A stretch of 64,000 bases of DNA. Origin: Patescibacteria group bacterium (GTDB lineage: Bacteria > Patescibacteriota > Minisyncoccia > Phycocordibacterales > UBA2100). The stretch spans positions 17,589 to 81,588 of the forward strand of contig JBBTXY010000003.1 in assembly GCA_038062075.1 (NCBI GenBank), given 5' to 3'. A program made the position numbers and the translations under genes. The notes beneath the pieces are model-generated. The model was not told where the DNA came from and did not search any database. It was given only the letters and a program-made list of their open reading frames with translations. Shown piece after piece: positions 16,041-53,406 of the stretch (position 1 is its first letter; each line of letters opens with the position of its first letter).

Positions 16041-16047
16041 GGCAAAA

Positions 16048-25103: not shown

Positions 25104-25111
25104 CCAAAGGT

Positions 25112-25537: not shown

Positions 25538-25620
25538 AGGGCTACTGTATCAGAAAGACATGACCTCGCAACGGAACGCAAGCGTCTTCCCATTCGCTCC
25601 GGATTCTGTAGACTGGTGCG

Positions 25621-37726: not shown

Positions 37727-37735
37727 CGGGTGTTT

Positions 37736-38800: not shown

Positions 38801-38838
38801 ACGAGACGGCAGTGTAGCAGATAACGGCTGTTTCGGGA

Positions 38839-40197
38839 ATGGTCAAAGCGCTCTGCAGAGGCGCGTGTGCATTGTTGACACAGTCCACATCCTGGACAAT
38901 GATGCTACGGATGAAGGCACGCTATCCGAAACATCATGCGATACGGACCGGCCACATCGCGCGCTGTCAGATATGCAATTCCTTGAAACTGCATCTCATT
39001 CTGGATCTCGGGTTCCAGCCGCCGGCTGACTCGCTCTTAACGACGCAGATGCTCAATGAGCCGGAGAAGACGTATCCCCTGCGGATGGTGTGGTGCGAGA
39101 AATGCACGGGGGTCCAGCTCGATTACTGCGTCGACGGAAAAGAGGTGTATCACCCGAACTATCCATACCGAAGCGGCATCACGAAGCCCTTGGCAGAATA
39201 TCAGCGGAACATCAGCCACTCTCTCATTGAGAAGTACAATCTCGGCCCGAAAGACCTCGTGATAGACGTTGGCTCCAACGACGGGACGCTCCTTAGCGGC
39301 TTCAAGGAAAAAGGCGTGCGGGTCTTAGGCGTTGAGCCGACGAACACTGCCGATATCGCGAACAAAAGCGGCATCAAAACCGTCAAGTCGTTTTTCGACA
39401 TCAAAACAGCGCGTGCGATACGGAAGAAATACGGCAAGGCCGCAGTCATGACCGCGACCAATGTCTTTGCGCACATGCAGACTTTGGGCGAGGTGATCAT
39501 GGGTATCTATGAACTTCTCGAGGACGACGGCGTGTTCGTTTCCGAATCGCACTATCTTTTGGATGTCATCAAAGACAATCAATTCGATACGATATACCAC
39601 GAGCACCTGCGGACGTATTCACTGCACTCCCTTATCGCGCTTTTCAAGCAGTATGATTTCACCATAACGGATGTCGAGCGGGGGAGCCGGTACGGCGGCA
39701 ATATCCGCGTGCATGTCACCAAAGGGAAGGGGAGAAAGGCGAGTCCCGCAGTCGGGAAGCTGCTCGCGGAGGAGAAGAAATTCGGGCTCGGCAAGCTGAA
39801 GACTTACACGACGTTCGCAAAGCGTGTCCGGAAGGCGCGGCTAGAACTCATAGACTTCCTTATTCAGGCGAAGAAGAAAGGCAAGCGCATCGCCGGGAAA
39901 TCAAGTCCCGCCCGTGCCGCGACCCTTCTTAATTACTATGGCATCGACACCGAGCTCATTCCGTATCTGGCTGAACAGCCGACCTCGCTGAAACTTAATC
40001 AGTATCTGCCCGGCGGGCACATTCCGATTGTTGATGAAAAGATTCTTCGTAAAGACAAGCCTGATTACATCGTTTTAATGGCGTGGCATTATGCGAAGGA
40101 GATCTCCAAACGTCTCAAGGTTGAAGGCATACGATCGGACTTTGTCGTGCCGCTTCCCGAAGTGCGCGTGATAAAAAATGCGGCGGTAAAAGCGTAG
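38839..40197 (+). CDS. Zinc-ribbon NDP-sugar C-methyltransferase family (TylCIII-like; Methyltransf_13 + MTase + C-MTase C-domain), copy 1
   Basis: 'CQICNS...CEKC' zinc ribbon, 'VIDVGSNDG' motif I, C-terminal domain. Start probably an internal Met (~38899). Confidence 0.6.
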   Translation: MVKALCRGACALLTQSTSWTMMLRMKARYPKHHAIRTGHIARCQICNSLKLHLILDLGFQPPADSLLTTQMLNEPEKTYPLRMVWCEKCTGVQLDYCVDGKEVYHPNYPYRSGITKPLAEYQRNISHSLIEKYNLGPKDLVIDVGSNDGTLLSGFKEKGVRVLGVEPTNTADIANKSGIKTVKSFFDIKTARAIRKKYGKAAVMTATNVFAHMQTLGEVIMGIYELLEDDGVFVSESHYLLDVIKDNQFDTIYHEHLRTYSLHSLIALFKQYDFTITDVERGSRYGGNIRVHVTKGKGRKASPAVGKLLAEEKKFGLGKLKTYTTFAKRVRKARLELIDFLIQAKKKGKRIAGKSSPARAATLLNYYGIDTELIPYLAEQPTSLKLNQYLPGGHIPIVDEKILRKDKPDYIVLMAWHYAKEISKRLKVEGIRSDFVVPLPEVRVIKNAAVKA

Positions 40198-40200
40198 CGC

Positions 40201-41226
40201 ATGCTCAACGTTGCTATTGTCGGCTCGGGTTTTGGTCGGTACGGTCTCCTGCCTGCGTTTGCTGCGGTGCCGCAGTGCACGGTTGTCGCGGTATGCGGGA
40301 AGAAAACAGATTCCCTTCGTAAAGATTGCCGGCGTTTTGGTGTTGAACATATCTACGAAGACTGGCGTGCGCTTTTGAAGAACGAGCGTATTGACGCGAT
40401 TGCGCTCGCGGTAACGCCGCGCGCGCAATACACGATTTCGAAAGCGGCGCTTCGCCAAGGCATCCATGTTTTCGCGGAAAAGCCGCTGGCGGTGGATCTC
40501 GCGCAGGCGAACGAACTCTTGCGCCTCGCACGGAAAAAACGCATTGTCACTGCGGTTGATTTCACCTTTCCGGAAATCGCCGCATGGCAGAAGGTCAAGC
40601 GATTGCTCGATGCGAAGACCTACGGCGAATTGCGGCATATCACAGCGAATTGGGATTTTTTGAGCTACGATATTGCGCACAAACGGAAGTCGTGGAAGAC
40701 CATCGCCGCCGAAGGCGGCGGAGCGCTGTCATTCTTTTTCTCGCACGGGTTGTACTATCTCGAGCATTTCGCGGGGACAATCTCGGATGTGCAGAGTAAC
40801 TTCTCGTACGCGAAGGAAAGTCTCGGCGGCGCGGAGGCGGGCGTCGATATGCTGCTCACGTTCCAGAGCGGAGTCATGGGAAGTGCGCACATCTCCTGCG
40901 CCGCGCGGGGTCTCCACCGCCACCAGCTTCTCTTCCACTGCGCACGTGCGACGATCGTGCTTGAGAACGAAGGGAGCCATATGAGCGGCTTCACGCTCAC
41001 CGTCTACGAGAAAGGGGCGCGGCGCATCGCGGTTTCTGCCGAGCGAGTCGTCAAGCATCAAGATCCACGCGTTCCTTTCGTGAAAAAGATCGCCGCACGG
41101 TTTGTCAGGAGCTGCCGGAGCGGCGCAACGATGCACCCGGGTTTTAAGGAGGGAGTGCGTGTGCAGGAGCTGATAGCACAGATACGATCCCGGCACACAG
41201 GTACGAAACCACGAGCTGCACGTTGA
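40201..41226 (+). CDS. Gfo/Idh/MocA-family oxidoreductase (cassette copy 1)
   Basis: 'VAIVGSGFGRYG', 'EKP'. Confidence 0.7.
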   Translation: MLNVAIVGSGFGRYGLLPAFAAVPQCTVVAVCGKKTDSLRKDCRRFGVEHIYEDWRALLKNERIDAIALAVTPRAQYTISKAALRQGIHVFAEKPLAVDLAQANELLRLARKKRIVTAVDFTFPEIAAWQKVKRLLDAKTYGELRHITANWDFLSYDIAHKRKSWKTIAAEGGGALSFFFSHGLYYLEHFAGTISDVQSNFSYAKESLGGAEAGVDMLLTFQSGVMGSAHISCAARGLHRHQLLFHCARATIVLENEGSHMSGFTLTVYEKGARRIAVSAERVVKHQDPRVPFVKKIAARFVRSCRSGATMHPGFKEGVRVQELIAQIRSRHTGTKPRAAR

Positions 41227-41245
41227 TAAAGGCCTGTACAATGGT

Positions 41246-42685
41246 ATGTCTCGTATGAAAGAGCAGACATTCGATTATATTGTTCTTGGCGGCGGTGTCT
41301 CGGGTTTGGGATTCGCGAAGCGGGTGAGCGAGAACAGCAGGTCGGTGTTGGTCCTCGAAAAAGAAGCAGTTGTCGGCGGCCTCTCGCGGAGCCTCCAGCA
41401 TAAGGGGTTTTATCTGGACTTTTGCGCGCATCGCTTCCACACAAAGAACAAAGCTCTCCTTGATGAGATCCGTTCGCTTCCCGGTCTCACGATGGAGCGC
41501 CATATCAAGAAGAGCCGCATCTACATGTTCGGGAAGTATTTGAAGTATCCGTTCGAGATACAGAATCTCCTTCGCGCCATGCCTATCACCCAGAGCTTCC
41601 TTTCAGGGCTCTCGTTCCTCAAGAACCTCGCGTTGAAATCGCTGCGAACGACGCGAGACCTGCGCTCATATAAAGATTGGTTCGTTCATCTCTATGGTAC
41701 ACGCCTGTATGAAGTCATGTGCCGGCCGTATACCTCGAAGATATGGCATCGTGATCCCAGCGAGATATCCGCAGATTGGGCCGATCAGCGTTTCCAAGGA
41801 GAGAACCTCTCCAAGCTTCTCGGGCGGATCATGAAGAAGATACTCACGCTGGATTTCAGTTCATACAATCTGGAGGACGACAGCCTCGCCCCGGATGGCG
41901 GCGCATTCTACTATCCACTGCGCGGCATCCAGGAGATGCCGGACGCGCTCGCGCGCTCAGCGGAGCGGAATGGCGCTCGCATTCTCACGAAGACAACGGT
42001 CACTAAGGTGAATACCGCTGCACGTACGGTTACGTTCGAGCACGAGGGGGTTCCTCGTACGGTCTCCTATGCTCAACTGATATCGACGATCCCCCTGCAT
42101 GCATACTATGCGCTCCAGGAGCGGCGCGATCCAAGGATCGAAAAGCACCTCACCAGCCTCACGTACATGGACATCATCTTTGTCTATCTATTTCTGGACA
42201 TTCCCCAGGTCTCCAACGACCACTGGTTGTATTTCCCGGACCCGGACATTATCTTCAATCGCGCCGTTGAGTTCTCGAACTGGTCGCCGCAGATGTGCCC
42301 ACCGGGGAAGACCGCGATTTGTTTCGACATCACGGTATTCCTCGAATCACCGGAATGGCAGATGAGCGATGAGGTGCTCATCGAGCGGACGATCGCCGAC
42401 GCGGCGCGCGTGGAGTATGTTAGAAAAGAGCATGTCGAAGAGGGGTTGGTTTTCCGCGTCACGCACGCGTATCCGTTCTACGACCTCGACTATCGAACGA
42501 AACTGGATGCGATCGTCCGCTTTCTTGAGACGGAACACGTGCATCTTCTCGGTCGCACTGGCATTTTCCGCTACAACAACTCCGACAACTCCATCGAGAT
42601 GGGCTTCGAGCTTGCGGAGAAGATGCTTGCCGGGAGATCTGCCGCGAGCGCTCACGAATATCGGGTAAAAGAAGTGAGCTACTGA
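41246..42685 (+). CDS. FAD-dependent oxidoreductase (amine-oxidase/PPO/Glf-like Rossmann), copy 1
   Basis: 'DYIVLGGGVSGLGFA...VLEKEAVVGG' dinucleotide-binding motif. Confidence 0.65.
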   Translation: MSRMKEQTFDYIVLGGGVSGLGFAKRVSENSRSVLVLEKEAVVGGLSRSLQHKGFYLDFCAHRFHTKNKALLDEIRSLPGLTMERHIKKSRIYMFGKYLKYPFEIQNLLRAMPITQSFLSGLSFLKNLALKSLRTTRDLRSYKDWFVHLYGTRLYEVMCRPYTSKIWHRDPSEISADWADQRFQGENLSKLLGRIMKKILTLDFSSYNLEDDSLAPDGGAFYYPLRGIQEMPDALARSAERNGARILTKTTVTKVNTAARTVTFEHEGVPRTVSYAQLISTIPLHAYYALQERRDPRIEKHLTSLTYMDIIFVYLFLDIPQVSNDHWLYFPDPDIIFNRAVEFSNWSPQMCPPGKTAICFDITVFLESPEWQMSDEVLIERTIADAARVEYVRKEHVEEGLVFRVTHAYPFYDLDYRTKLDAIVRFLETEHVHLLGRTGIFRYNNSDNSIEMGFELAEKMLAGRSAASAHEYRVKEVSY

Positions 42686-42690
42686 CGGAT

Positions 42691-44079
42691 ATGCATCTCC
42701 TGCGGAGCATGTTCGGCGAGAAAAGGATACGCTTTACGCTTTTCGCGATCTCTCTCCTCGCGCACCTCGTCGTATTCGCGCTGCTCCTCGTGCACTACGG
42801 TCCGTCGGCATCTTTTTTTTCGGTCGACGGGTCGTTGAATGGCAACGACGCGCAGCACTACGTGACGATCGCGAAGAATCTTGCGGAGGGGAACGGGTAC
42901 TCCCGTTTCCCGGACGCGCCATTCGAGCCGGATGCGTTCCGTACGCCACTTCTCCCGCTCTATTTCGTCCCCTTCGTCTTTTTCGGCGGCCTGCCCCTCA
43001 TATGGCTCCCCATTCTTCTTTTAAATCTAATCCTCGCATTCGCGGCGGTCCTCATGTACAAGCTGGCACGGCTCTTCCTCCCGCATGGATATGCGGCGGC
43101 CGCCGGGCTCGCCATGGCGCTTGACCCCTTGTTTTTGTACCGCAGCCAGCTCGCGGAACCGGACGCGCTCTTCGTGTTTCTCACGCTCGGTGCTGCATAC
43201 TTCTGCGCGCTGTTCTGGGGGACCGCGCGTCCTCGCTACATCCTCTTTTCGTCGGTCATCTTAGGCATCTCCATCCTTCTCAAACCGACCGGACTGTATG
43301 TCGCGATCATCCTCTTTGCATGCCTCGCCGCGTTCGTCTTTTTCTTCAGACGAGGAGAGTGGCGCATGCATGCGAGGCATCTCATTTTCGGGGCATTGAT
43401 ACTACTGGCGCTTCTTGCGCCATGGCTGATACGCAACCACGCGTCCTTCGGCGTCTGGGGTATCTCGAGCGTCGGCGGATTTAATCTCTACGAATTCTAT
43501 ACGGTGAACCAGCGGTTGCCCGGTGAGCAAGTGCCCGAGAACATAGCGACGAGCAGTCGGGAACCGAGCCGACACCTTCCGAACCAGTCATACTTTACGG
43601 ACGTTGCAATGGAGAGGATACGAGAGGCGCCGCTCTCCTATGCGAAAGAACAGGCGGTGGGGACGTTGCGCAACCTGTTCGTTTCGGAGTTGCCGGTCAT
43701 CTACTACTATGGCCATAGCGCTCTCTTGCCTTTTCCCTACAATCCGGAGTCAACAACAAACCTGCGCGAACTTCTGCTCCAAGGGGACGGAGCGAGCGTC
43801 TTCTTTGCGCTTGCCCACAATATCCCGAAGGTTCTCTGGTTCGCCGCGCTTCTTTTTGTCTATATCCTTACCTTTCTCGGCTGGCTGTACGCATGGAAGA
43901 AGGATCGTGTCGTCTTCCTCATGTTCACCTCCTTCATCCTGATCTTCGGGTATTTTGTCGTCGCCTCGGGACCGTATGTCGACGCTAAATACCGGATGCC
44001 CGCAATGCCGCTCATCGTGATAGTGTGTGCATATGGCGTTTATGAGTTGCGGAGTCAATGGTGGCGAATACGACCATGA
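42691..44079 (+). CDS. GT-C fold membrane glycosyltransferase (ArnT/PMT-like)
   Basis: Multi-TMS, Dol-P-sugar transferase-like topology. Confidence 0.55.
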   Translation: MHLLRSMFGEKRIRFTLFAISLLAHLVVFALLLVHYGPSASFFSVDGSLNGNDAQHYVTIAKNLAEGNGYSRFPDAPFEPDAFRTPLLPLYFVPFVFFGGLPLIWLPILLLNLILAFAAVLMYKLARLFLPHGYAAAAGLAMALDPLFLYRSQLAEPDALFVFLTLGAAYFCALFWGTARPRYILFSSVILGISILLKPTGLYVAIILFACLAAFVFFFRRGEWRMHARHLIFGALILLALLAPWLIRNHASFGVWGISSVGGFNLYEFYTVNQRLPGEQVPENIATSSREPSRHLPNQSYFTDVAMERIREAPLSYAKEQAVGTLRNLFVSELPVIYYYGHSALLPFPYNPESTTNLRELLLQGDGASVFFALAHNIPKVLWFAALLFVYILTFLGWLYAWKKDRVVFLMFTSFILIFGYFVVASGPYVDAKYRMPAMPLIVIVCAYGVYELRSQWWRIRP

Positions 44080-44954
44080 GTATTGAAAAAGCATTTGACC
44101 ATAATTCCTTCAGAGGCGAAATACTGCGCCCTGATTTTTTGCGGAGCGTCGTTGAGGCGGGGAATCTCGCACTTAACGTTCGACAAGAGGGTCTTACATC
44201 CGAGGTTAAATCAACAAAGGAAGACATTGTCACCCGCGGCGACCTTGCTGTTTCTTCGATGCTGCGCGAGCGGCTCTCACAGCTTTTCCCGGGGATTGTC
44301 TTTATTGACGAAGAAGTCCCGGAGAGCGACTCGCTTGATATAACAGCGCATGCGATGGTCGCCATCATTGACCCCATTGATGGCACGACGAATTACTATA
44401 ACAAGGGAGAAAAAGATTCTTCGGAAGCTCCCGCAAACCCGAACTGGGCCGTTTCGGTTGGGATCACACGAGAGGGAAAACTACACGCCGGGGTCATATA
44501 TCAGCCAATGCTGCAGAAGTTATTTTATGCGGAAAGGGGTCGTGGTGCCTATATGAATGGCAAACGTCTTCATGTCTCGACGACCCAGTCGCTTTCGGAT
44601 GCGCGGCTCATCTACGATTACCCCTATCCTAAAGACAAGAAGGAATACGAGCTTACCGGCCGTGTACTTGCTGCGCTGGAGCCGCAGATAACGTCTGCAG
44701 AGCGGCTCGGGAGCGCTGTCGTAGAGACCATGGAAGTGGCAGAGGGGAAAAGCGACTTCTTTATGCTTTTGAGGACCCAGCCATGGGATGTGGCCGCCGC
44801 GGCTGTTATCGTCGAAGAGGCGGGCGGGACAGCTTTTAATGCAACAGGTGAGCCGTTCAAAATCGGCAACCGCTCGATCGTACTCACAAATGGAAAGATT
44901 GAAATCGCGCCTCTGATACATCTCATTTACCAGAAATTGGGGAGTGATTCATAA
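44058..44954 (+). CDS. Inositol monophosphatase family protein paralogue 4
   Basis: 'AIIDPIDGTTNY'. Confidence 0.7.
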   Translation: MVANTTMSIEKAFDHNSFRGEILRPDFLRSVVEAGNLALNVRQEGLTSEVKSTKEDIVTRGDLAVSSMLRERLSQLFPGIVFIDEEVPESDSLDITAHAMVAIIDPIDGTTNYYNKGEKDSSEAPANPNWAVSVGITREGKLHAGVIYQPMLQKLFYAERGRGAYMNGKRLHVSTTQSLSDARLIYDYPYPKDKKEYELTGRVLAALEPQITSAERLGSAVVETMEVAEGKSDFFMLLRTQPWDVAAAAVIVEEAGGTAFNATGEPFKIGNRSIVLTNGKIEIAPLIHLIYQKLGSDS

Positions 44955-45004
44955 GTCCGGTGCACTGCCTTGCACCCAAGCGCAAAGTAGTGTTTATTGT
45001 GCGG

Positions 45005-46060
45005 ATGCAAAGAAAGATCGAGAAGTCCTCCAAGCCCAAAGGGGAAAAGCCACCAAAAAAAGTCCTCATTACCGGCGCGGCGGGGTTCATCGGTCATCAC
45101 CTGCTGGACTATCTCTTGCAAAAGACCGATTGGGATTTTGTCCTCCTCGATCGGCTCGATGTGTCGGGGAACCTCGATCGTGTTCGGGACATTCCTTCGT
45201 ATGAAGCGAACCGGCATCGCATCCAATTCGAATGGCATGATCTGAAAGCGCCCGTGAATGATTCCCTCGCAAAGCGTCTGGGCAACCCGCACTACATTTT
45301 ACATCTTGCCGCATCAAGCCACGTCGATCGTTCCATCGAGGATCCGATGCTCTTTGCAATGGATAATGTCGTCGGCACGGTCAATATTCTCAATTTTGCA
45401 CGCACATGCAGCAACCTCGAGAAATTCATAAATTTCTCGACCGACGAAGTATTTGGTCCTGCACCCGAAGGGCACGCGCACAAAGAAGACGAGCCGCACC
45501 GGCCCTCAAACCCCTATTCGGCATCGAAAAGCGGGCAGGAAGCATTCGGCTACGCGTTTTTCGTCACGTACGGCCTTCCTGTCGTCACAACGCACACCAT
45601 GAATAATTTTGGGATCCGGCAGCATCCTGAAAAGCTCCTGCCAAAGACCATTTGTTCCGTTCTAAACGGAACGCCGATGCCTATTTTTGCGAAATTGAAC
45701 GCCAAAAGAAAACTTGAGGCTGTTGGCAGCCGCTACTGGATCAACTGCTGGAACACATCGTCTGCTGTGCACTTCCTTCTTGAGCACGGCTCGCCCGGCG
45801 AGAGCTACAACATCATCGGATTCGACGAATTCACGAATCTCGAGATCGCGGAAAAGATCGCAAAGATCATCGGCAAAAAACTCATCCCGAAATTCGTCGA
45901 CTTCCACGCCGTCCGTCCCGGCCATGACCGGCGCTACGCTCTCGACGGCAGCAAGATAAAGAAAATGGGGTGGAAACCTGAAATCCCTTTCGACACATCG
46001 CTCCGTGATACGGTCGAATGGTACCTTGAGCCGAAGAATCGGCATTGGCTGAACGATTGA
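45005..46060 (+). CDS. rmlB: dTDP-glucose 4,6-dehydratase-like
   Basis: 'VLITGAAGFIGHHL', 'STDEVFG', 'YSASKSGQE'. Confidence 0.75.
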   Translation: MQRKIEKSSKPKGEKPPKKVLITGAAGFIGHHLLDYLLQKTDWDFVLLDRLDVSGNLDRVRDIPSYEANRHRIQFEWHDLKAPVNDSLAKRLGNPHYILHLAASSHVDRSIEDPMLFAMDNVVGTVNILNFARTCSNLEKFINFSTDEVFGPAPEGHAHKEDEPHRPSNPYSASKSGQEAFGYAFFVTYGLPVVTTHTMNNFGIRQHPEKLLPKTICSVLNGTPMPIFAKLNAKRKLEAVGSRYWINCWNTSSAVHFLLEHGSPGESYNIIGFDEFTNLEIAEKIAKIIGKKLIPKFVDFHAVRPGHDRRYALDGSKIKKMGWKPEIPFDTSLRDTVEWYLEPKNRHWLND

Positions 46061-46065
46061 TTGAT

Positions 46066-46776: not shown

Positions 46777-46781
46777 ATGAT

Positions 46782-47492
46782 ATGGACACGGCGATCGAAG
46801 GGAAGCTCTCGAGCGTTTCTTTCTTTTGCCCTGCCTATCATGATGAGAAGAACTTGCCGGTTTTGATACCGCGCGTGCACGCATTTCTCTCCGAGATCGC
46901 GCACCGATTCGAGATCGTCATCGTCGAAGATGGGAGCCCTGACACAACGGGGGAGGCGGCTGACGCACTTGCCGCACGATACAAAGAAGTCCGCGTCATA
47001 CATCATCCGAAGAACCTCGGCTATGGAGGTGCTATCCGCGACGGGTTCCTCAACAGCCGTCTGGACTATGTCATGTATACCGACGGCGACAACCAATACG
47101 ACCCCCGCGAATTCGAGGCGGCACTCCCGCTTTTAAGAGAGGCAGATGTCGTGAGCGGGTATGTCCGCGAAAAGGCCGTGAGCGACCTCCGGAAACTGCA
47201 ATCCACTATCTTCAACCTTATGGTCGCCGTGTTGTTTTTTGTCTGGATCCGGGACATCAACTGCTCGATGAAGATATACAAGCGGAAAGTGCTTGATGCG
47301 ATCGAGATAAAAAGCATGAGCGCTTTTATCGATGCGGAAATGCTGGTGTGCGCGCGCCGTGCGGGGTTTCGCATCGCACAATTCCCGGTCACGCACTTTC
47401 GCCGGACCGAGGGCCTTCCGAGCGGATCGAAACTTGCCGTCATCGTCCCCACCATTATGGATATGCTGAAATTTAGATTCGGGCTATTATAA
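46782..47492 (+). CDS. Polyprenol-phosphate glycosyltransferase (GT2, DPM1-like)
   Basis: 'VSFFCPAYHDEKNL', 'VEDGSPDTT', 'TDGD' DxD. Confidence 0.7.
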   Translation: MDTAIEGKLSSVSFFCPAYHDEKNLPVLIPRVHAFLSEIAHRFEIVIVEDGSPDTTGEAADALAARYKEVRVIHHPKNLGYGGAIRDGFLNSRLDYVMYTDGDNQYDPREFEAALPLLREADVVSGYVREKAVSDLRKLQSTIFNLMVAVLFFVWIRDINCSMKIYKRKVLDAIEIKSMSAFIDAEMLVCARRAGFRIAQFPVTHFRRTEGLPSGSKLAVIVPTIMDMLKFRFGLL

Positions 47493-47498
47493 AGCCCC

Positions 47499-48398
47499 AT
47501 GATTACCACGAACGATACAGTGCTCATCACCGGCTGCGGTGGCATGCTCGGCGAAGGCGTCTACAAGCGCTTTAAGGATCATGTGAAGGTGTTTGCGACC
47601 GATATTGATCTGAACGAGCCGTGGCTTACGCATCTCGATGTGCGGGATGCGACAGAGGTTGAGAAACGCCTCGACGAGATACGGCCTGACTACATCGTCC
47701 ACCTCGCTGCGCTCACGGACATGGAATACTGTGAGACGCATCCGGAGGACGCGCAGGCGACGAATGCTGACGCAGTCGCTCATTTCGCGCCGTATGTGGA
47801 AAAGAACGCGACGCCGTTCGCGTATATCTGCACTGCCGGCATCTTCGACGGAGAAAAAGAAGTGTATCAGGAAGACGACATTCCCAATCCTTTGAGCGTG
47901 TATGGGAAGACGAAATACAGCGGGGAGCTGAACGCAAAGAAATATCAAAAACATGTCGTCGCGCGCGCCGGCTGGATGATGGGCGGGGGTCCTACAAAAG
48001 ACAAGAAATTCATCAATAAGCTCATCAAACAGGTGAAGGGTGGAGCGAAAGAGCTCTTTGTCGTGGACGACAAATTGGGGACACCCTGCTACACCTACGA
48101 TCTCGCCAATATCCTCTATACGCTCCTGGATAAAGGGCACCACGGCGTCTTCCACGGGGTCTGTGAAGGGGGAGGTTCGCGAGCGGAAATCGCACGCTTT
48201 CTTTTACAATGTCTCGGTCGCGAAGATGTGAAGATAACAGAAGTTGCTTCTGATTATTTCAAGACAACCTATTTCGCGCCGCGTCCGCGATCGGAGAAGA
48301 TGATCAATAAGCACCTGCATGACCTCGGCCTCAACCTGACGCGCGATTGGCATGACGCCGTCGAGGACTACGCCCGCACGTTCGACTGGGGCGTATGA
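47499..48398 (+). CDS. rmlD: dTDP-4-dehydrorhamnose reductase-like
   Basis: 'VLITGCGGMLG', 'YGKTK'. Confidence 0.7.
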   Translation: MITTNDTVLITGCGGMLGEGVYKRFKDHVKVFATDIDLNEPWLTHLDVRDATEVEKRLDEIRPDYIVHLAALTDMEYCETHPEDAQATNADAVAHFAPYVEKNATPFAYICTAGIFDGEKEVYQEDDIPNPLSVYGKTKYSGELNAKKYQKHVVARAGWMMGGGPTKDKKFINKLIKQVKGGAKELFVVDDKLGTPCYTYDLANILYTLLDKGHHGVFHGVCEGGGSRAEIARFLLQCLGREDVKITEVASDYFKTTYFAPRPRSEKMINKHLHDLGLNLTRDWHDAVEDYARTFDWGV

Positions 48399-49693
48399 CG
48401 GCATCGGGCTTTGCATCATTTGTGCAACGCCACAAAACCGAGCTCATCATTTTCAGCGGCGCGCTCCTCATCCGCGTGCTGTACGTGGTCCTGATCCAGG
48501 CGGTTTCGGGTGCGCACGGCTTTATCTCGCATGCCGATGCCTACTTTTTCTACTACCGCGCCGCACTCAATCTTCTCGAACACCACGTGTTGAGCATCGC
48601 GGAAATGGCCCCCTATTACCCAGATGCGTACCATACGCCGCTCTACGCACTCTTCCTCGCCGGGCTTATCGCGCTCAAGGTGCCGTTAGGGGGGGTTGTT
48701 CTGGTGCAGAGCGTGTTTTCTTCGCTGACGGCGGTCCTGGCCTATAGGATCGGCATCATCCTCTCCCGCCGTGCATGGATCGGGGTTTTTGCCGCAGTGC
48801 TTGTCGCGCTCGAACCGATGTCCTTGTACTGGAACGGGCTTCTCATGTCTGACGTCCTTTTCGGATTCTTGCTGACGGTATCCTACTACCTTCTCATAAC
48901 CGGACGGTATCGTATAAGCGCGGTCGCACTCGGGCTTTCTGCCCTCACCCGCCCGATCATGCTCTACCTTGCTCCGGTCTTTTTTCTTGCCATGGTGTTT
49001 GGAGAGTTCCGGCGCGAGAGGACATTCTGGGAGAACAGTGCGCGTACGCTCGCTTCGTTCGCGATCTTCGTTGCGATTATCTTCCCGTGGTTCGTGCATA
49101 ATAAGATAACGTCAGACACGTGGGCATTCACGAGCGCAGGATGGTATGAGATTTATGTCGCACCACTTCAGGAGTTCACGAAGCGGTATGGATATGAAGT
49201 GCCGGACGTAGAGACGTTGGGAGCCTCTGATTTCTCGCGCTTTAACTTTTCCTACTCTTCGCGCTATCGTGATGTGGCGCTTCCACTCATCATCCAGCAT
49301 CCGATTCAATACGGCCTTACGCATCTGTCCCGTTCGGCGAGGTCGGTGGTCACGAACCGCTACGAATACCTCGTGAACGTCGTCATTAAGTCACAAGTGC
49401 CGTCTCTATACGAGCGTTTTTCTAGCATTTTTTCACTGCTGCTTGTCGTAGGATGGTTGTTTTGGATCATCGTGTATCTTCTGTGCGCGGTCGCATTCTT
49501 CGAGAAGGAGATACGAATCTGGTGGTTCTTTTTAGCTGGACTCTTTCTCATCAACATCCTACTCTCGGGCGGGATCAATCCCGGAGGCGCCGAGATGAGC
49601 CGCTACATGCTTGGGCTCCATGCGTTCTTTTTCGCATTCGCGGGCGTCGGTGTACAGGTAATATCGCGATGGCGGAATTCGTTCAATGAGTGA
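48395..49693 (+). CDS. GT-C fold membrane glycosyltransferase (ArnT/PMT-like)
   Basis: Multi-TMS, overlaps rmlD stop (ATGA). Confidence 0.55.
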   Translation: MTASGFASFVQRHKTELIIFSGALLIRVLYVVLIQAVSGAHGFISHADAYFFYYRAALNLLEHHVLSIAEMAPYYPDAYHTPLYALFLAGLIALKVPLGGVVLVQSVFSSLTAVLAYRIGIILSRRAWIGVFAAVLVALEPMSLYWNGLLMSDVLFGFLLTVSYYLLITGRYRISAVALGLSALTRPIMLYLAPVFFLAMVFGEFRRERTFWENSARTLASFAIFVAIIFPWFVHNKITSDTWAFTSAGWYEIYVAPLQEFTKRYGYEVPDVETLGASDFSRFNFSYSSRYRDVALPLIIQHPIQYGLTHLSRSARSVVTNRYEYLVNVVIKSQVPSLYERFSSIFSLLLVVGWLFWIIVYLLCAVAFFEKEIRIWWFFLAGLFLINILLSGGINPGGAEMSRYMLGLHAFFFAFAGVGVQVISRWRNSFNE

Positions 49694-49820
49694 TAAAATG
49701 CTGCCCTATATGCCCGTACACACGAAATGGCATAGCGCTTAGAATTGTAATCGGTTATTCTACAAACTCTATGGTGTCAATTTACAAGTCATCTGTAGGG
49801 GCATTCGTTGCGCAGCAACA

Positions 49821-51026
49821 ATGCCATTTCGTGTGACGGGTATGCACTGTCGCCTGTGCCGTCATGAGAACACGCTTGAGTTCCTGGATCTGGGGAAACA
49901 GCCTCTCGCCAACAAATATCCGAAAAAAGAGGAGTTTGAGACCGAGGATTTCTTTCCCGTAAAGGTCTTTTTCTGTCCAGAGTGCAAGAGCGTGCAGCTC
50001 GGAACACAGGTCTCGCGCGAGAGGATGTTTGAAGACTACTTTTATCTTTCGTCGGTGAATACGGGACTCGTGAAGCAGTATGAAGTATTTGCGAAGACTC
50101 TTGCGGATTCGAGATTTGTTGTCGACATAGGCTCGAATGACGGCATATTATTGAAACCTCTGAAAGAGATGGGGGTCAAAGCCGTCGGCGTCGAACCCTC
50201 CATCAATGTGTCAAAGATAGCGAACGATGCGGGCCTCACCACGATCACCTCATTCTTCGATGCGAGAGCGGCCGCACAGGTAGAGAAAGAGTACGGAAAG
50301 CCCGATGTGATCACAGGCTTCAGCATGTTCTCGCACCTGGGGGACCCGCATGATTTTATCGAAGATGTGAAAAATCTCCTGATGGACGACGGCAGATTCA
50401 TCCTGGAGATCGAATATGTCGATACCATGCTGAAGAACATGTCCTTCGAACGATTTTACTTGGATAGGATCTCCTACTATTCCGTAACCTCGCTTGAGAA
50501 CTTGTTCCAGCAGCACGGCATGTACCTCTCCGACGTGGAGGAGACGGATTCTCATGGGGGGTCATTGCGCGCAACGGTGCAAAAGAAAGGAAAGGGTCAG
50601 GTGCCAACGGAGCGCGTCGCGCGTCATATCACGTATGAGGCGAAGAAGCTGACAGCAGAGAGCCTGACCGAATTCGGGAATGAGGCCATGGCGCAGATAG
50701 CAGCGCTTCGCGGAAAATTAGAGGAATTCAAAGCTGCCGGACTGAAGGTTGCTGGCTTCGGTGCGCCGGCACGCGTCTCCACATTATGCAATTTCGGCCG
50801 TATCGGCCCCGAACTCATTGCATGTATCGTGGACGAGACCCCGCTAAAGCAAAATCGACACAGCCCCGGGACACACATTCCCATCGTGCCGATGTCGCAT
50901 CTGGAAAAGTACCGACCAGACATCTTTGTCGTTTTTGTACATGAATACTTCGACGTCGTGAAGAAAAAGTTATCTGGGGCATCATATCGCTACCTGTTCC
51001 CGATACCGCCAAAAGAAGTACACTAA
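49821..51026 (+). CDS. Zinc-ribbon C-methyltransferase family, copy 2
   Basis: 'CRLCRH...CPEC', 'VVDIGSNDG'; collinear with 38839-40197. Confidence 0.65.
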   Translation: MPFRVTGMHCRLCRHENTLEFLDLGKQPLANKYPKKEEFETEDFFPVKVFFCPECKSVQLGTQVSRERMFEDYFYLSSVNTGLVKQYEVFAKTLADSRFVVDIGSNDGILLKPLKEMGVKAVGVEPSINVSKIANDAGLTTITSFFDARAAAQVEKEYGKPDVITGFSMFSHLGDPHDFIEDVKNLLMDDGRFILEIEYVDTMLKNMSFERFYLDRISYYSVTSLENLFQQHGMYLSDVEETDSHGGSLRATVQKKGKGQVPTERVARHITYEAKKLTAESLTEFGNEAMAQIAALRGKLEEFKAAGLKVAGFGAPARVSTLCNFGRIGPELIACIVDETPLKQNRHSPGTHIPIVPMSHLEKYRPDIFVVFVHEYFDVVKKKLSGASYRYLFPIPPKEVH

Positions 51027-51031
51027 TCAAC

Positions 51032-51958
51032 ATGACACGCCTTGCACTCTTCGGGCACGGACGGTGGGGGAAAGCTATTCTCCGGACGCTCGAGGGGTTC
51101 CCCGAAGTGTCGGTTACTGTCGTGGGCCGCGGCGAAACGCCAGGAGCGAACGTTGATGGCGCCATTATCGCAACGCCTGTCTCGACGCACGCCGAACTCG
51201 CGCTCCCGCTTATCGAGCGCGGAGTTCCCCTACTCATAGAAAAACCTCTGACGGCTTCCGTTGAGGAAGCGAACCGTCTCGAGGCTGCTGCCGAAAAGGC
51301 AGACACGCTTGTGCAGGTCGGGCATATTCATCTGCATAATCCGGCATTTATGAAAGTACAAGAACTGCTGCCAACACTAGGCCGCATCCGATATCTCTCA
51401 TTTGAGGGGATGAATAACGGGCCGGCGCGCAATGACGCATCGGTTTTATGGGACTGGCTTCCGCATCCCTTGTCGATGACGTTACGTCTTGTGGAGGCCG
51501 CGCCTCTATCGGTGCAGGCGTGGGGAATAAACTGTTTACGCCCCGACACGCAGGCGCTGTACGACATTGGCATCGTGAGATATGTATTTGAAGGAGGTGC
51601 GTCCTTGCTATGTTCGGTGAATTGGCTCTCGCCCGAGAAGCGCACCAAAATGACAATCGTCGGCGAAACGAGCTCGTTGGTTCACACCGATACGGATGCG
51701 CAGAAACTCGTGCTCTACGAAGGGATGGGCCCGGCTGTTGACGGGATGCAGGTGACGCACCAGGCTCCGTCCGTCTCGTATCCTGCCTATGGGGGTGGCT
51801 GGCCGCTGGAGCACGAACTGCACGCGTTTATTGACGCTCTGCAGAAAGGGTCTCGTGACCGATCAGAGTTGGCATTCGGTGCTCGGATCGTGCGATTGAT
51901 CGCCGCCGCGCACACATCGATCGAAACGGAAGGCCGAGCGGTGACCCTCAATATATAA
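51032..51958 (+). CDS. Gfo/Idh/MocA-family oxidoreductase (cassette copy 2)
   Basis: 'LALFGHGRWG', 'EKP'. Confidence 0.65.
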   Translation: MTRLALFGHGRWGKAILRTLEGFPEVSVTVVGRGETPGANVDGAIIATPVSTHAELALPLIERGVPLLIEKPLTASVEEANRLEAAAEKADTLVQVGHIHLHNPAFMKVQELLPTLGRIRYLSFEGMNNGPARNDASVLWDWLPHPLSMTLRLVEAAPLSVQAWGINCLRPDTQALYDIGIVRYVFEGGASLLCSVNWLSPEKRTKMTIVGETSSLVHTDTDAQKLVLYEGMGPAVDGMQVTHQAPSVSYPAYGGGWPLEHELHAFIDALQKGSRDRSELAFGARIVRLIAAAHTSIETEGRAVTLNI

Positions 51959-51966
51959 TCCACCCC

Positions 51967-53406
51967 ATGTCTTCCGGTATCACACGTAAGAAGTTTGTTA
52001 TACTCGGCGCGGGGCCTGCTGGCATGGGGGCTGCGTGGGAACTCCATACAAAGGGCGCGAAAGACATCACGGTCGTCGATCGCAACGACCGTGTCGGCGG
52101 TCTCGCACGCACGTTTACGTTCAAAGGCTATCGTTTCGATGTTGGGCCACACCGATTTCTGACGAAATATCCGGAAGTCGAAGTTCTGTGGAAGCAGCTC
52201 TTAGGCGACGACCTCTTGACCCGTCCGCGACTCACGCGCATTTATTATCGCGGACGTTTTTTTCTATATCCTCTCAAGATGGTGAACGCACTCTGGAATC
52301 TCGGATTTTGGCAGAGCATCCTCGCGGGCTTGAGTTTCCTGAAGGCGCAGATACTGTGGCGTGGGAAGGAGCCGAAGAATTTCGCCGAGTGGACCACGAA
52401 GACCTTCGGCAACCGGATGTCCCAGGCGTTTTTCCGGGACTATTTCAGGAAGGTGTGGGGGATAGGCGCGCACGAGGTCGGGATAGAGTGGGCCGGCCAG
52501 CGCATCAAAGGGATACGTATTCGTGATTTTTTTGGCAATAAGCTGAAAGAATTCGTCTGGCAGCAGAGGTCCGAGAATATCGGCAATCAGTTCTTGTATC
52601 CACGCCACGGTGCAGGGCAATTCTACGAAGCGATGAAACAGGAACTCGAGAGGGCCGGCGTGCATTTCAACCTCGGGCACGAGGTAGTCGCGGTGTGCCA
52701 CGAGGGCGAACATATCACTACGGTTGAAACCGAAGGACCGAATGGCGCGCACGAAATCTTCTCGGGCGACGTGTTCATATCGAGCATACCGGCGAATTTC
52801 CTCGTACAGTCACTCACGCCGGCAGTTTCTGCGAACGTGCTGGCTCTGACGGATACGATGCGTTTCCGTGCGCATATCGCGGTCAATATGATAATCAAAC
52901 GGAAGGATCTCTTTGCTGATTCGTGGTTCTATATCCAATCGTCCGAATTCCGCATCGCTCGCATCGGGAATTACGGCGCATTTAGCCCGGACATGTTGGG
53001 ACGGCCCGACACCTCCGCAATAGGGGTCGAATTCTTTTGCCACGCGGGCGATACGTTCTGGAAACAGAGCGACGAGGATATTATCGCACGTGCGGTAGAT
53101 GAATTGGTCCAGCTCGGGTTTATTGCGCGGGAAGAATTCGACGGCGCGTTCGTCGTCAGACATGCAGATGCATACCCGATGTATTACTTAGGGTATCGTG
53201 AGGAGTTCGCGCGCTTGCGGACGTATCTGGAAGGCTTTGAGAACTTACGGCTCACCGGCCGTGCGGGGATGTATAAGTACAAAGACCAAGATCACGCGCT
53301 CTATACGGGGATCCTGACGGTTCGGAACCTCTTCGGAGAGCATAACGACGTATGGGAGCTCGGAGAAGAAAAGGAATTTTTTGAAGAGAAAACAGTTTCT
53401 AAATGA
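51967..53406 (+). CDS. FAD-dependent oxidoreductase, copy 2
   Basis: 'KFVILGAGPAGMGAA...VVDRNDRVGG'; paralogue of 41246-42685. Confidence 0.65.
   Translation: MSSGITRKKFVILGAGPAGMGAAWELHTKGAKDITVVDRNDRVGGLARTFTFKGYRFDVGPHRFLTKYPEVEVLWKQLLGDDLLTRPRLTRIYYRGRFFLYPLKMVNALWNLGFWQSILAGLSFLKAQILWRGKEPKNFAEWTTKTFGNRMSQAFFRDYFRKVWGIGAHEVGIEWAGQRIKGIRIRDFFGNKLKEFVWQQRSENIGNQFLYPRHGAGQFYEAMKQELERAGVHFNLGHEVVAVCHEGEHITTVETEGPNGAHEIFSGDVFISSIPANFLVQSLTPAVSANVLALTDTMRFRAHIAVNMIIKRKDLFADSWFYIQSSEFRIARIGNYGAFSPDMLGRPDTSAIGVEFFCHAGDTFWKQSDEDIIARAVDELVQLGFIAREEFDGAFVVRHADAYPMYYLGYREEFARLRTYLEGFENLRLTGRAGMYKYKDQDHALYTGILTVRNLFGEHNDVWELGEEKEFFEEKTVSK

Follow-up and report, generated by a model that had tools for sequence, protein, structure and literature searches.

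Two trios of genes, each encoding a sugar C-methyltransferase (MT), a Gfo/Idh/MocA oxidoreductase (GFO) and a flavoenzyme (FAD), lie in the same orientation on the + strand of the window (the whole 64,000-nucleotide stretch analysed), and they most likely tailor nucleotide-activated sugars, not epimerise lipid-linked ones. We tentatively favour a reading (probability roughly 0.45) in which the trio enzymes would be cytoplasmic and act on one nucleotide sugar, which would be methylated and then ring-contracted to an NDP-3-C-methyl-6-deoxyhexofuranose; this is preferred only narrowly to a reading in which the two reactions belong to parallel branches. The parts are ordinary enzyme families, and their combination is unusual and lineage-restricted. 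An earlier sequence-only reading of this DNA had described the arrangement as a duplicated cassette acting on lipid-linked sugars; its observation was partly confirmed and its interpretation partly supported.

The source genome is that of a groundwater member of the Patescibacteria, Kaiserbacteria-like. The MT–GFO–FAD order occurs exactly where the sequence-only reading had placed its cassette (38839–42685 and 49821–53406), with GT-C enzymes adjoining and the quoted motifs present. The first trio comprises MT1 (38839–40197), GFO1 (40201–41226) and FAD1 (41246–42685), the second MT2 (49821–51026), GFO2 (51032–51958) and FAD2 (51967–53406). Since gaps inside each trio are only 3–19 nt and the 3′ end of FAD2 overlaps the following gene (53403–55658) by 4 nt, the + strand from 38839 to 55658 fits a single operon, with RmlA-, RmlB- and RmlD-like genes situated between the trios. 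By Pfam, both MTs contain PF08421, a class-I SAM domain (PF13489) and PF08484, both GFOs contain PF01408 with the C-terminal domain PF22725, and both FADs contain PF13450 and PF01593, so that the four families named beforehand (PF08421, PF08484, PF01408 and PF01593) were all found in the respective proteins.

The word "duplicated" overstates the relationship between the trios. The proposed pairwise paralogy held for the MTs (34% identity, E 2e-67) and the FADs (26%, E 3e-47), but GFO1 and GFO2 share only 22% identity across 111 residues (E 1e-5, 32 bits), and each scores higher (44–46 bits) against the two other GFO genes of the window. Relatives in other genomes are much closer than the in-window partners: MT1 has relatives at 72% in other Patescibacteria, MT2 at 57–61% in Alphaproteobacteria and a Woesearchaeote, and FAD1 at 64–68% in unrelated contexts. 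Judged by these identities, recent duplication is not the origin of the two trios.

Nor is the trio a recurrent or widely conserved module. In a search for it elsewhere, the trio was confined to Kaiserbacteria; all three loci that bear it are syntenic, so that they amount to one evolutionary observation. No FAD gene was found within about 10 kb of the MT loci from other genomes (0/12), all 12 of which carry the MT–GFO pair without it, and no C-MT was found within 8 kb of metagenomic FAD-family loci (0/80). FAD relatives outside the trio loci instead adjoin SDR reductases, GT2, GtrA and GT-C genes; FAD1 orthologues (64–75%) occur without MT–GFO, their neighbour being either an RmlD-like reductase or a GT-C alone, and FAD2 orthologues (60–63%) lie 3′ of an SDR epimerase with MT absent. 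In cultured Proteobacteria, C-MT and reductase genes accompany GT2, GtrA and GT39 genes, and a Legionella adelaidensis plasmid has the order MT, Gfo/Idh/MocA, GT2, MT, GtrA, rfbF, rfbG. In the trio, seen twice and specific to this lineage, an MT–GFO pair stands beside a mutase(–GT-C) unit; elsewhere the two travel separately. As the sequence-only reading had supposed, no description of it was found in the literature searched.

MT1 and MT2 are homologous along their full length to the NDP-4-keto-hexose 3-C-methyltransferases MtmC, KijD1 and TcaB9, and the assignment of both as true sugar C-methyltransferases with a zinc ribbon and C-terminal domain, and not ordinary class-I enzymes, is supported by their domain content. 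MT1 matches MtmC (4rv9, E 2e-75), KijD1 (5t64) and TcaB9 (3ndi), and its motif FDTIYHEHL contains the canonical YHEH; its real start is probably near 38899, and its orthologue in locus L103 is 432 aa long. MT2 (E 5e-61 against TcaB9) belongs to a distinct subfamily: it has YLDR where the canonical YxEH stands, and the motif FERFYLDRI is common to all seven MT2-type sequences compared. This absence of the Glu-His pair counts against the favoured reading.

GFO1, a candidate NDP-sugar ketoreductase with GxGxxG and EKP motifs, resembles the sugar 3-ketoreductase KijD10 (3rbv, E 2.6e-15). Its orthologues (51%) lie directly 3′ of MT1 orthologues in L008 and L009, where the pair adjoins RmlA and RmlB homologues. 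In this putative reductase the usual D-x-x-x-H motif lacks its Asp, which also argues against the favoured reading. GFO2 is compact; as it carries both GHGRWG and EKP motifs, it is not truncated. It matches 3c1a (E 1.5e-28) and 7bvj (E 8.4e-15), the latter of which we take to be a GnnA-type UDP-GlcNAc 3-dehydrogenase, and its orthologues (39–40%) accompany MT2-type genes in L014 and L016.

FAD1 and FAD2 resemble eukaryote-type UDP-galactopyranose mutases (UGMs) in sequence, as does FAD1 in predicted fold. The best PDB sequence match of FAD1 is Aspergillus fumigatus UGM (3ute, E 7.5e-27, full length), and the top 34 Foldseek matches of its AF2 model (pLDDT 83) are all eukaryotic UGMs (TM 0.78–0.83). 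FAD2, a member of NCBIfam NF005548 (PRK07208; 483 bits against a cut-off of 389), best matches T. cruzi UGM (4dsg, E 6.8e-23), mainly over its N-terminal ~275 residues. In family alignment A2 no sequence, FAD2 included, departs from AfUGM at H63, Y104, Y162, W167, R182, W315, Y317, R327, Y419, R447 or Y453; of the active-site His/Arg/Tyr/Asn compared, FAD1 keeps all and FAD2 all except the Asn. The sequence-only reading had set against itself the case of an FAD protein that is plainly a UGM by HMM. FAD1 and FAD2 come close to that case in sequence, and FAD1 also in predicted fold, although the cut-offs of curated UGM HMMs were not reached.

The surrounding genes do include GT2, GtrA-domain and GT-C machinery of the kind that uses polyprenyl-phosphate sugars. 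The claimed flanks are present: GT-C (PMT_2) enzymes at 42691–44079 (+, directly 3′ of FAD1; PF13231, E 1.2e-9; pairing kept in L103, L104 and L106) and 35336–36793 (−, PF13231, E 1.1e-9, multi-pass by hydropathy), the latter with a homologue (38%) near the MT1–GFO1 pair of L009; and, 3′ of FAD2, a membrane protein of the Wzy_C (O-antigen ligase/polymerase-like) type whose C terminus carries TPR repeats (53403–55658, +; PF04932, E 1.2e-18; PF14559), kept 5′ of SecA in L020 and L104. A multi-pass protein 5′ of MT2 (48395–49693, +), a position kept in L103 and L020, gave no match in a Pfam search but is a GT-C paralogue of 42691–44079 (28% identity, E 1e-15, similar hydropathy). Two candidate polyprenyl-phosphate sugar synthases, as had been noted, lie nearby: a GT2 fused to a GtrA/DPMS transmembrane domain (33982–35301, −; PF00535, E 6.9e-28; PF04138, E 3.3e-15), kept in L103 and with weak NCBIfam likeness to dolichyl-phosphate hexose transferase and AglJ, and a short ArnC/dolichyl-phosphate-hexose-transferase-like GT2 (46782–47492, +; PF00535; NF007986, E 1.2e-19, and NF041391, both under cut-off). 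An FkbM-family methyltransferase (36827–37726, +; PF05050, E 2e-24; PF05575 RfbT), identically positioned in L103, is likely to O-methylate sugars, and an inositol-monophosphatase-family phosphatase (44058–44954, +; PF00459, E 8.8e-56) keeps its place in L103 and L020.

In the favoured reading, a surface glycan put together by GT-C enzymes outside the membrane would receive unusual sugars from both trios. By homology, the RmlA-like (46066–46776, +; TIGR01207, E 1.6e-69; PF00483) and RmlB-like (45005–46060, +, gene call taken from L001; TIGR01181, E 1.5e-77, 261 bits against a cut-off of 365) proteins would yield dTDP-4-keto-6-deoxyglucose. Against this reading, the nucleotide carrier is uncertain, because every Rml-like match falls under its curated cut-off, including that of the RmlD-like 4-ketoreductase (47499–48398, +; TIGR01214, E 2.3e-54); RmlC (PF00908) was not found among the window ORFs scanned. 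A second 4-keto sugar may come from an extended SDR, 4,6-dehydratase- or epimerase-like (37736–38800, −, divergent from MT1; PF01370, E 2.7e-37; PF16363), whose top NCBIfam matches, dTDP-glucose 4,6-dehydratase and LegB, are both under cut-off and whose homologues (46–49%) adjoin MT2-type and/or GFO2-type genes in L011 and L014–L017. The + strand ORF at 37730–38824 is a shadow of this gene. The MT would then use SAM to methylate the carbon beside the 4-keto group, most likely C-3, and the GFO would reduce the keto group, a role suggested by the KijD10 likeness and by its fixed place after the MT in loci without another obvious reductase. The UGM-like enzyme, with reduced FAD, would convert pyranose to furanose, and a GT2 would load the product onto polyprenyl phosphate for flipping and transfer by the neighbouring GT-C enzymes, as the gene content suggests. 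The link to GT-C is also favoured by the GT-C, GT2 and GtrA genes among the immediate neighbours of FAD-family genes and by the FAD1–PMT_2 pairs of L103, L104 and L106. Against the favoured reading, C-methyl-branched hexofuranoses are, to our knowledge, so far unreported.

Coupling of these steps is favoured by the recurrence of the same tightly packed order from different subfamilies; if the operon's 13 units were randomly ordered, we estimate the chance of both MT–GFO units standing directly 5′ of an FAD gene at p = 2*11!/13! = 0.013. This order mirrors the sole chemically possible order of reactions, because a furanose ring closed via O4 excludes the 4-keto group on which methylation depends. 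The same packing, and that estimate, weigh against the strongest rival, itself quite possible, in which MT–GFO with a 4,6-dehydratase-type SDR makes C-methyl 6-deoxyhexopyranoses and the UGM-like enzymes with RmlD-/GalE-like SDRs make unbranched (6-deoxy)hexofuranoses (fucofuranose or galactofuranose), adjacency reflecting cassette packing in one glycan operon. Such branches would also imply at least four separate rare sugars, against only two polyprenyl-phosphate-type GT2 genes in the stretch. In their favour, and against coupling, MT–GFO and FAD show no linkage at all in other lineages, and the FAD orthologues are highly conserved with or without MT–GFO. The RmlD-like gene is the usual neighbour of FAD1 orthologues outside this locus, its own orthologues (47–52%) lying directly 5′ of them in L003–L007, L023 and L024. 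Cyanobacterial and Methylomagnum genes of the FAD family are paired with one for a GT-A glycosyltransferase, much as glf is with Galf-transferase genes. No adaptation of the mutases to a methylated substrate need be assumed, as FAD2 orthologues occur without MT and one of them (P0129, 63%, in alignment A2) has the same active-site motifs as FAD2. The known Fcf-type route likewise requires a reductase and mutase only (PMC12369002). Because mutases of this type can tolerate changes elsewhere in the sugar, such as in C5 stereochemistry (PMC12369002), a methylated substrate is still compatible with the conservation of the FAD proteins.

Improbable, by our estimate, is a redox cycle in which the GFO oxidises an NDP-sugar hydroxyl (WlbA/GnnA-like), the MT methylates the neighbouring carbon and the same or another enzyme re-reduces the product, so that no 4,6-dehydratase is required. 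The best NCBIfam match of GFO2 (NF040723, archaeal UDP-GlcNAc 3-dehydrogenase, E 4e-24) and its match to 7bvj point this way, and the altered MT2 motif could mean a different regiochemistry; yet both matches are far under curated cut-offs. A dehydratase-derived 4-keto substrate is favoured because a 4,6-dehydratase-like SDR flanks the MT2-type genes of other loci, and rfbG or RmlB is present at canonical MT loci.

Of DprE1 and DprE2, the first belongs to the FAD_binding_4 family and the second to the SDRs. The sequence-only analogy with this pair, in which an FAD oxidase and an NAD(P) reductase would epimerise a polyprenyl-phosphate sugar via a keto intermediate methylated by the MT, accords with the GT-C, GT2 and GtrA content of the window, with the enrichment of FAD relatives beside such genes (12 PMT_2, 3 PMT, 5 GT87, 11 GT2 and 6 GtrA among immediate neighbours, n=116), with the stand-alone FAD1–PMT_2 pair of L106 and with a true DprE1-like and SDR pair at the same operon place in sister locus L020, but is very improbable: a DprE1-like identity of FAD1 and FAD2 is disfavoured by their UGM-like sequence and active-site residues and the FAD1 fold, the reductase is a Gfo/Idh/MocA protein and not an SDR, no homologue of the L020 genes was found within this window, all MT homologues of solved structure use dTDP-4-keto sugars, and Pfam matched no membrane domain in any of the six trio proteins.

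For the preferred reading, in which one nucleotide sugar is methylated and then ring-contracted, the proposed mutase step has a precedent in the demonstrated CDP-D-fucofuranose pathway, which leads from NDP-glucose by way of a 4,6-dehydratase, a C4-reductase and a pyranose/furanose mutase dependent on FADH2 (PMC12369002).

The six open reading frames of the two trios were recovered at the positions assigned by the sequence-only reading: MT1 (38839-40197), GFO1 (40201-41226) and FAD1 (41246-42685) in trio 1, and MT2 (49821-51026), GFO2 (51032-51958) and FAD2 (51967-53406) in trio 2, where MT denotes a sugar C-methyltransferase, GFO a Gfo/Idh/MocA oxidoreductase and FAD a flavoenzyme resembling UDP-galactopyranose mutase (UGM). 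Gaps within the trios are 3-19 nt, the whole of 38839-55658 is encoded on the + strand, and the single sizeable gap (127 nt) lies ahead of MT2. Pfam domains were as predicted, with PF08421, a class-I SAM domain and PF08484 in both MTs, PF01408 and a C-terminal domain in both GFOs, and PF13450 and PF01593 in both FADs. The flanking genes, including those of membrane glycosyltransferases (GT-C), matched their earlier description as well; the gene at 48395-49693 gave no Pfam match and encodes a multi-pass protein paralogous to that of the PMT_2 gene at 42691-44079.

Most of the window is taken up by a surface-glycan region containing nucleotidyltransferases, many SDR epimerases/dehydratases, four Gfo/Idh/MocA genes, a heptose-pathway-like set, a flippase-type Polysacc_synt gene, four GT-C paralogues and a Wzy_C-TPR protein, after which come SecA and GatB. 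RmlA-, RmlB- and RmlD-like genes are encoded, together with a GT2-GtrA fusion and a short ArnC-like GT2. The ORFs scanned showed no RmlC-type domain, and the annotated genes of the window neither a 2,3-dehydratase nor an aminotransferase. Comparison loci L001 and L002 have the same sequence as the window, and identical copies of FAD2 occur in the Patescibacteria MAG GCA_964363605.1 (contig CAYIIW010000001.1) and on a groundwater contig from Hainich. Candidatus Kaiserbacteria supply the nearest relatives of both FAD1 and FAD2.

Immediately upstream of MT1, on the - strand, lies an extended SDR gene of the dehydratase/epimerase type (37736-38800). The + strand ORF at 37730-38824 (364 codons, no Pfam match) was considered as a conserved unknown protein and rejected as an antisense shadow of this gene; it gives 30-34% tblastn matches beside MT2-type genes, and the minus-strand SDR gives 46-49% at the same places. 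Shadow ORFs that find tblastn matches in other genomes can mislead in this way. The MT1 ORF opens ~20 codons upstream of the starts of its orthologues (432 aa in L103, a syntenic Kaiserbacteria locus; match from residue 16 in L008). Judged from these alignments, the true start is probably near 38899, with 38839-38898 being extra, which would leave ~100 nt of divergent intergenic DNA between MT1 and the minus-strand SDR gene.

Several other features of the region were observed. Four genes of the inositol-monophosphatase family lie in this one glycan region (9606-10730; 12352-13227 and 18566-19552, both on the - strand; and 44058-44954), the last of which has kept its place, with a GT-C gene on one side and the RmlB-like gene on the other, in L103 and in a second syntenic Kaiserbacteria locus, L020. 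A consecutive row of SDR, GHMP kinase, transaldolase/FSA, SIS isomerase and HAD phosphatase genes (13319-17294), present as the same set in L104, resembles a nucleotide-heptose pathway of the GmhA/HddA/GmhB type. L103 carries a small GIY-YIG gene (L103:16358-16657) between its GT2 and RmlD-like genes; this gene is missing from the window, with which L103 is otherwise collinear. After GatB, a 226-aa ORF (61135-61815) with a weak match to a Y1 transposase (PF01797) keeps its position in L002 and has a similar counterpart in L020.

Both MTs align end to end (E 2e-75 to 2e-53) with MtmC (4rv9), KijD1 (5t64) and TcaB9 (3ndi), which are solved dTDP-sugar 3-C-methyltransferases. The zinc ribbon PF08421 scored above cut-off in each (E 1.2e-18 for MT1 and 8.6e-20 for MT2), as did PF13489 and PF08484, and the two proteins share all of the CxxC...CxxC cysteines. 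The expectation that they are C-methyltransferases with the zinc ribbon (PF08421) and C-terminal domain (PF08484), and not ordinary class-I methyltransferases, was borne out, and homology settles their predicted function as sugar C-methyltransferases of a type that adds its methyl group beside a 4-keto group. MT1 has YHEH at TcaB9 Y222/E224/H225, which we take to be the active-site Tyr-x-Glu-His motif. In the MT2-type subfamily, FERFYLDRI (near residue 212 in MT2) replaces the canonical FDxIYxEH of TcaB9, MtmC and MT1, Glu becoming Asp and His becoming Arg. Each of the seven MT2-type sequences compared has YLDR; they come from Patescibacteria, Alphaproteobacteria and a Woesearchaeote (the window, L103, L020, L011 and L014-L016), and the change suggests a different catalytic arrangement or regiochemistry.

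The best PDB sequence match of FAD1 was Aspergillus fumigatus UGM (AfUGM; E 7.5e-27, residues 8-463) and that of FAD2 was T. cruzi UGM (E 6.8e-23). When an AF2 model of FAD1 (pLDDT 83, pTM 0.82) was compared with the PDB by Foldseek, the top 34 chains were all A. fumigatus or T. cruzi UGM (TM 0.77-0.83, E about 1e-33 to 1e-30), protoporphyrinogen oxidases ranking after them (TMq 0.65-0.73), and the model matched the UGM three-domain fold with its N-terminal FAD Rossmann motif. AfUGM residues were mapped through a HMMER alignment to 3ute onto an alignment (A2) of 13 family members, including FAD1 and FAD2, from Patescibacteria, Verrucomicrobia, Kiritimatiellia, Chloroflexi, Nostoc and others. 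The AfUGM residues tested there, comprising the flavin-loop His and the diphosphate- and nucleotide-binding Arg, Tyr and Trp residues, were all invariant (H63, Y104, Y162, W167, R182, W315, Y317, R327, Y419, R447 and Y453); at AfUGM N457, FAD1 has the same Asn and FAD2 an Asp. The fold search also matched PDB entries of mutants (F66A, H63A, R182K, R327A/K, Y104A, Q107A, N207A and Y317A), which between them cover five of the invariant positions, namely H63, Y104, R182, Y317 and R327.

Neither protein reached the cut-offs of the curated UGM models PF03275 (GLF) and TIGR00031: on PF03275 (cut-off 26.3) FAD1 scored 16.4 bits, and on TIGR00031 (cut-off 304) the scores were 62 bits for FAD1 and 32 bits for FAD2. 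On NF005548 (PRK07208, 'hypothetical protein'; cut-off 389 bits), FAD2 scored 483 and is a member, while FAD1 scored 294, below the cut-off. The sequence-only reading had named a flavoenzyme that was plainly a UGM by HMM as part of what would refute its proposal; the outcome comes close to this, the proteins being UGM-like by PDB match, FAD1 fold and residues, although they miss the curated cut-offs. Homology settles that they are UGM-type enzymes, with ring-contraction activity predicted. PRK07208, annotated as 'hypothetical protein' or 'protoporphyrinogen oxidase', is on this evidence a large, uncharacterised bacterial family of eukaryote-type UGM-like proteins in which the UGM catalytic residues are kept.

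In GFO1 and GFO2, PF01408 and PF22725 scored above cut-off, and the GxGxxG and EKP motifs of the N-terminal NAD(P) Rossmann domain were present in both (GSGFGRYG and AEKP in GFO1; GHGRWG and IEKP in GFO2). GFO1 matched the sugar 3-ketoreductase KijD10 (3rbv) at E 2.6e-15 over residues 15-176 only, no better than it matched uncharacterised family members. No PDB match of GFO2 to KijD10 was obtained at E <= 1e-5; GFO2 was nearest to 3c1a and 7bvj, with a weak match to a UDP-GlcNAc 3-dehydrogenase model. An N-terminal truncation of GFO2, suspected because its Pfam match begins at profile position 62, was rejected: since GHGRWG and EKP are present and there is no room upstream, GFO2 is a compact form and not a fragment.

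The gene order MT-GFO-FAD does occur twice, as the idea of a duplicated cassette required, but a recent duplication is ruled out by the pairwise identities and by the closer relatives that each member has elsewhere. MT1 and MT2 are 34% identical and FAD1 and FAD2 26%, and GFO1 and GFO2, the least similar pair among the four GFO proteins of the window, align at 22% over 111 residues. MT1 has relatives at 71-72% in other Patescibacteria, and MT2 at 57-61% in Alphaproteobacteria and a Woesearchaeote; FAD1 has >100 cluster representatives at 64-84% identity, and FAD2 about ten at 60-79%, followed by a broad family at <=46%. The trios have therefore been built from different subfamilies of each family.

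A search for the trio elsewhere, suggested by the sequence-only reading, gave no recurrence in unrelated genomes. Genome contigs were searched with the MT alignment and narrow patterns (12 loci) and metagenomes with the FAD alignment (80 loci). None of the 12 MT loci had a FAD gene and none of the 80 FAD loci an MT (no C-methyltransferase within 8 kb of FAD), so that neither scan contained an independent trio. The full trio was found only in loci syntenic with the window, L103 having both trios in the same layout and L020 having trio 2, and ten contig look-ups for FAD1 and FAD2 relatives again returned it from these two alone. In a plasmid collection, 164 records had a canonical C-methyltransferase and seven a FAD relative, and no listed organism had both.

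The components have their own partners elsewhere. The MT1-GFO1 pair is conserved (71-72% and 51%) in L008 and L009, where it adjoins RmlA and RmlB homologues and no FAD gene is present. Homologues of the minus-strand SDR (46-49%) accompany MT2-type genes in L011 and L014-L016, a GFO2 homologue (39-40%) comes next in L014 and L016, and an SDR-GFO2-type pair occurs in L017; none of these five loci has a FAD gene. These SDR homologues, lying directly beside MT2- and/or GFO2-type genes, come from Alphaproteobacteria, a Woesearchaeote and another Kaiserbacterium, and they indicate that the more widely conserved three-gene unit is MT2-SDR-GFO2 and not MT-GFO-FAD. Plasmid 20 of Legionella adelaidensis (L110; record 20573-27064) carries, in order, C-methyltransferase, Gfo/Idh/MocA, GT2, methyltransferase, GtrA, rfbF and rfbG genes, and a Roseibium plasmid carries GtrA, GT39, rfbF, rfbG, aminotransferase, C-methyltransferase, NAD(P) oxidoreductase and GT2. 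Both have a 4,6-dehydratase close by and a reductase-type gene after the methyltransferase, and independently support the view that the MT-reductase pair consists of nucleotide-sugar enzymes. L. adelaidensis is a cultured, tractable host of C-methyltransferase and Gfo/Idh/MocA pathway genes.

On the FAD side, an RmlD-like orthologue (47-52%) directly precedes the FAD1-type gene in L003-L007, L023 and L024, and a PMT_2 gene directly follows it in L103, L104 and L106. The L106 unit (8001-10899) comprises just two genes, those of a FAD1 orthologue (75%) and a PMT_2 GT-C, and sugar genes are otherwise missing within 8 kb of it; GT-C and mutase-like enzyme seem to move together as a pair. FAD2-type genes (60-63% identity) come after an SDR epimerase. 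Among 116 immediate neighbours of FAD-family members, Pfam identified 12 PMT_2, 3 PMT, 5 GT87, 11 GT2, 6 GtrA and 5 RmlD/Epimerase genes, and no PF08421 or PF08484. In Nostoc (L022) and on plasmids of Methylomagnum (L108) and Gloeothece (L109), a ~335-aa GT-A/GT2 glycosyltransferase gene lies directly ahead of the FAD2-like gene, which these records from cultured bacteria label only 'NAD(P)/FAD-dependent oxidoreductase'; in Nostoc a GT87 gene follows.

Based on these data, we propose that a dehydratase product would be methylated by MT, reduced at the keto group by GFO and ring-contracted by the mutase, after which GT2 would load the sugar on polyprenyl phosphate for transfer by GT-C. To the reading in which one sugar passes through all three trio enzymes we assign a probability of about 0.45. 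In its favour, the MT-GFO-FAD order is repeated and tightly packed although drawn from different subfamilies (estimated at 0.013 by chance), and the chemistry forces methylation and reduction to precede ring contraction. The succession of 4,6-dehydratase, C4-reductase and FADH2-dependent mutase has been demonstrated for CDP-D-fucofuranose (PMC12369002). Against a single route, the MT-GFO and FAD units are completely decoupled elsewhere, and FAD orthologues are highly conserved in genomes without a nearby MT-GFO pair. That MT-GFO and the mutase work in parallel on separate sugars is accordingly a serious, if somewhat less probable, alternative, against which the repeated, packed order counts.

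The remaining weight is shared by a redox cycle in which GFO acts first and by the lipid-linked model of the sequence-only reading. In a separate reading, the UGM-like family might act on polyprenyl-phosphate-linked sugars, as lipid-linked pyranose-to-furanose mutases feeding the adjacent GT-C, with a C-methyl-branched substrate in this operon. This reading would explain the linkage of the family to GT-C, GT2 and GtrA and the stand-alone FAD1-PMT_2 pair in L106, and the phosphate-binding residues fit it too because they are needed with either substrate. The conserved uridine-site residues (AfUGM Y104, Y162 and W167) and the GT-A genes that adjoin the family in cyanobacteria and Methylomagnum, however, argue for nucleotide sugars, and we consider it improbable. 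Homology of the trio to DprE1/DprE2, on which the sequence-only reading had modelled an epimerisation of lipid-linked sugars, was rejected on domains and folds (PF01593/PF13450 flavoenzymes and PF01408 reductases, against FAD_binding_4 of the VAO type in DprE1 and a short-chain dehydrogenase in DprE2) and on the absence from the window of a pair present in L020.

In L020 (3681-5743), a FAD_binding_4 protein and an adh_short protein followed by GT2 replace the RmlA-like/RmlD-like segment of the window, with trio 2 retained. The best PDB matches of the FAD_binding_4 protein are all DprE1 (E 3e-23 to 2e-20), and neither it nor its SDR partner gave a tblastn match in the window. By these matches, the L020 pair is what a predicted DprE-type module looks like in this lineage.

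If the route through all three enzymes is correct, ultra-small groundwater bacteria make a nucleotide-activated C-methyl-branched 6-deoxyhexofuranose, a class of which we know no description, and display it by a lipid-carrier/GT-C route, which would add to the scant knowledge of Patescibacteria surfaces; if the enzymes work in parallel, this is an ordinary, though rich, glycan gene cluster. All three families, the nucleotide-sugar logic and the GT2/GtrA/GT-C delivery scheme are already known. The novelty lies in the MT-GFO-FAD juxtaposition, whose product may be a C-methyl-branched furanose: the trio had been put forward as undescribed, and literature searches for the combination and for the TcaB9 mechanism returned no description of it and nothing directly relevant. 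It lies also in the linkage of a large bacterial UGM-like family with genes of lipid-carrier glycosylation; in many phyla PRK07208 is associated with genes for GT2, GtrA and GT-C, a hint that extracytoplasmic furanosylation may be widespread. Gfo/Idh/MocA proteins are, in addition, a recurrent partner of sugar C-methyltransferases, and hence candidate ketoreductases for virenose-like pathways. These last two points hold under either reading, and both are testable.

Among known systems, DprE1/DprE2 (decaprenyl-phosphoribose) likewise pairs a flavin enzyme with a nicotinamide-dependent one in the vicinity of GT-C genes whose products use furanose donors, but differs in the folds of both enzymes, and the true DprE1-like and SDR pair belongs to L020 and is missing from the window. 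Gtr-type systems consist of a GT2 polyprenyl-phosphate synthase, a GtrA flippase and a GT-C; the window has a GT2-GtrA fusion, an ArnC-like GT2 and four GT-C paralogues, and beside FAD-family genes in other genomes these three components are over-represented. To our knowledge, the donor in known Gtr-type systems is a common hexose, whereas the operon of the window adds dedicated sugar-tailoring enzymes. The actinomycete branched deoxysugar pathways (TylC3/EryBIII/MtmC/TcaB9/KijD1, with KijD10) share the three-domain MT, whose YHEH MT1 keeps, and the Gfo/Idh/MocA partner, and draw substrates from dTDP-4-keto-6-deoxyglucose; they differ in that the window is a Patescibacterium surface-glycan cluster with GT-C and not a natural-product cluster, and in that MT2 has YLDR and not YxEH. 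For virenose (6-deoxy-3-C-methyl-gulose) of Coxiella burnetii LPS, an in silico route runs from a 4,6-dehydratase through a TylCIII-type 3-C-methyltransferase to a 4-ketoreductase that was not confidently predicted (PMC3539893). The LPS/surface-glycan context and the logic of the route are the same, but the Coxiella route ends in a pyranose, with no mutase, and in the window Gfo/Idh/MocA is a fixed neighbour and a plausible reductase. Finally, the NDP-fucofuranose pathways combine a nucleotidyltransferase, a 4,6-dehydratase, a C4-ketoreductase and a reduced-flavin mutase, a set that the RmlA-, RmlB- and RmlD-like proteins and FAD1 of the window fit. They include the dTDP-D-Fucf pathway of E. 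coli O52 (Fcf1/Fcf2) and the CDP-D-Fucf pathway of C. jejuni HS:41 (PMC12369002). The window differs from them in that its mutases belong to a ~480-aa eukaryote-type UGM-like lineage (NF005548/PRK07208) below the PF03275 and TIGR00031 cut-offs, and in that a C-methyltransferase and a Gfo/Idh/MocA protein are encoded directly upstream of the mutase.
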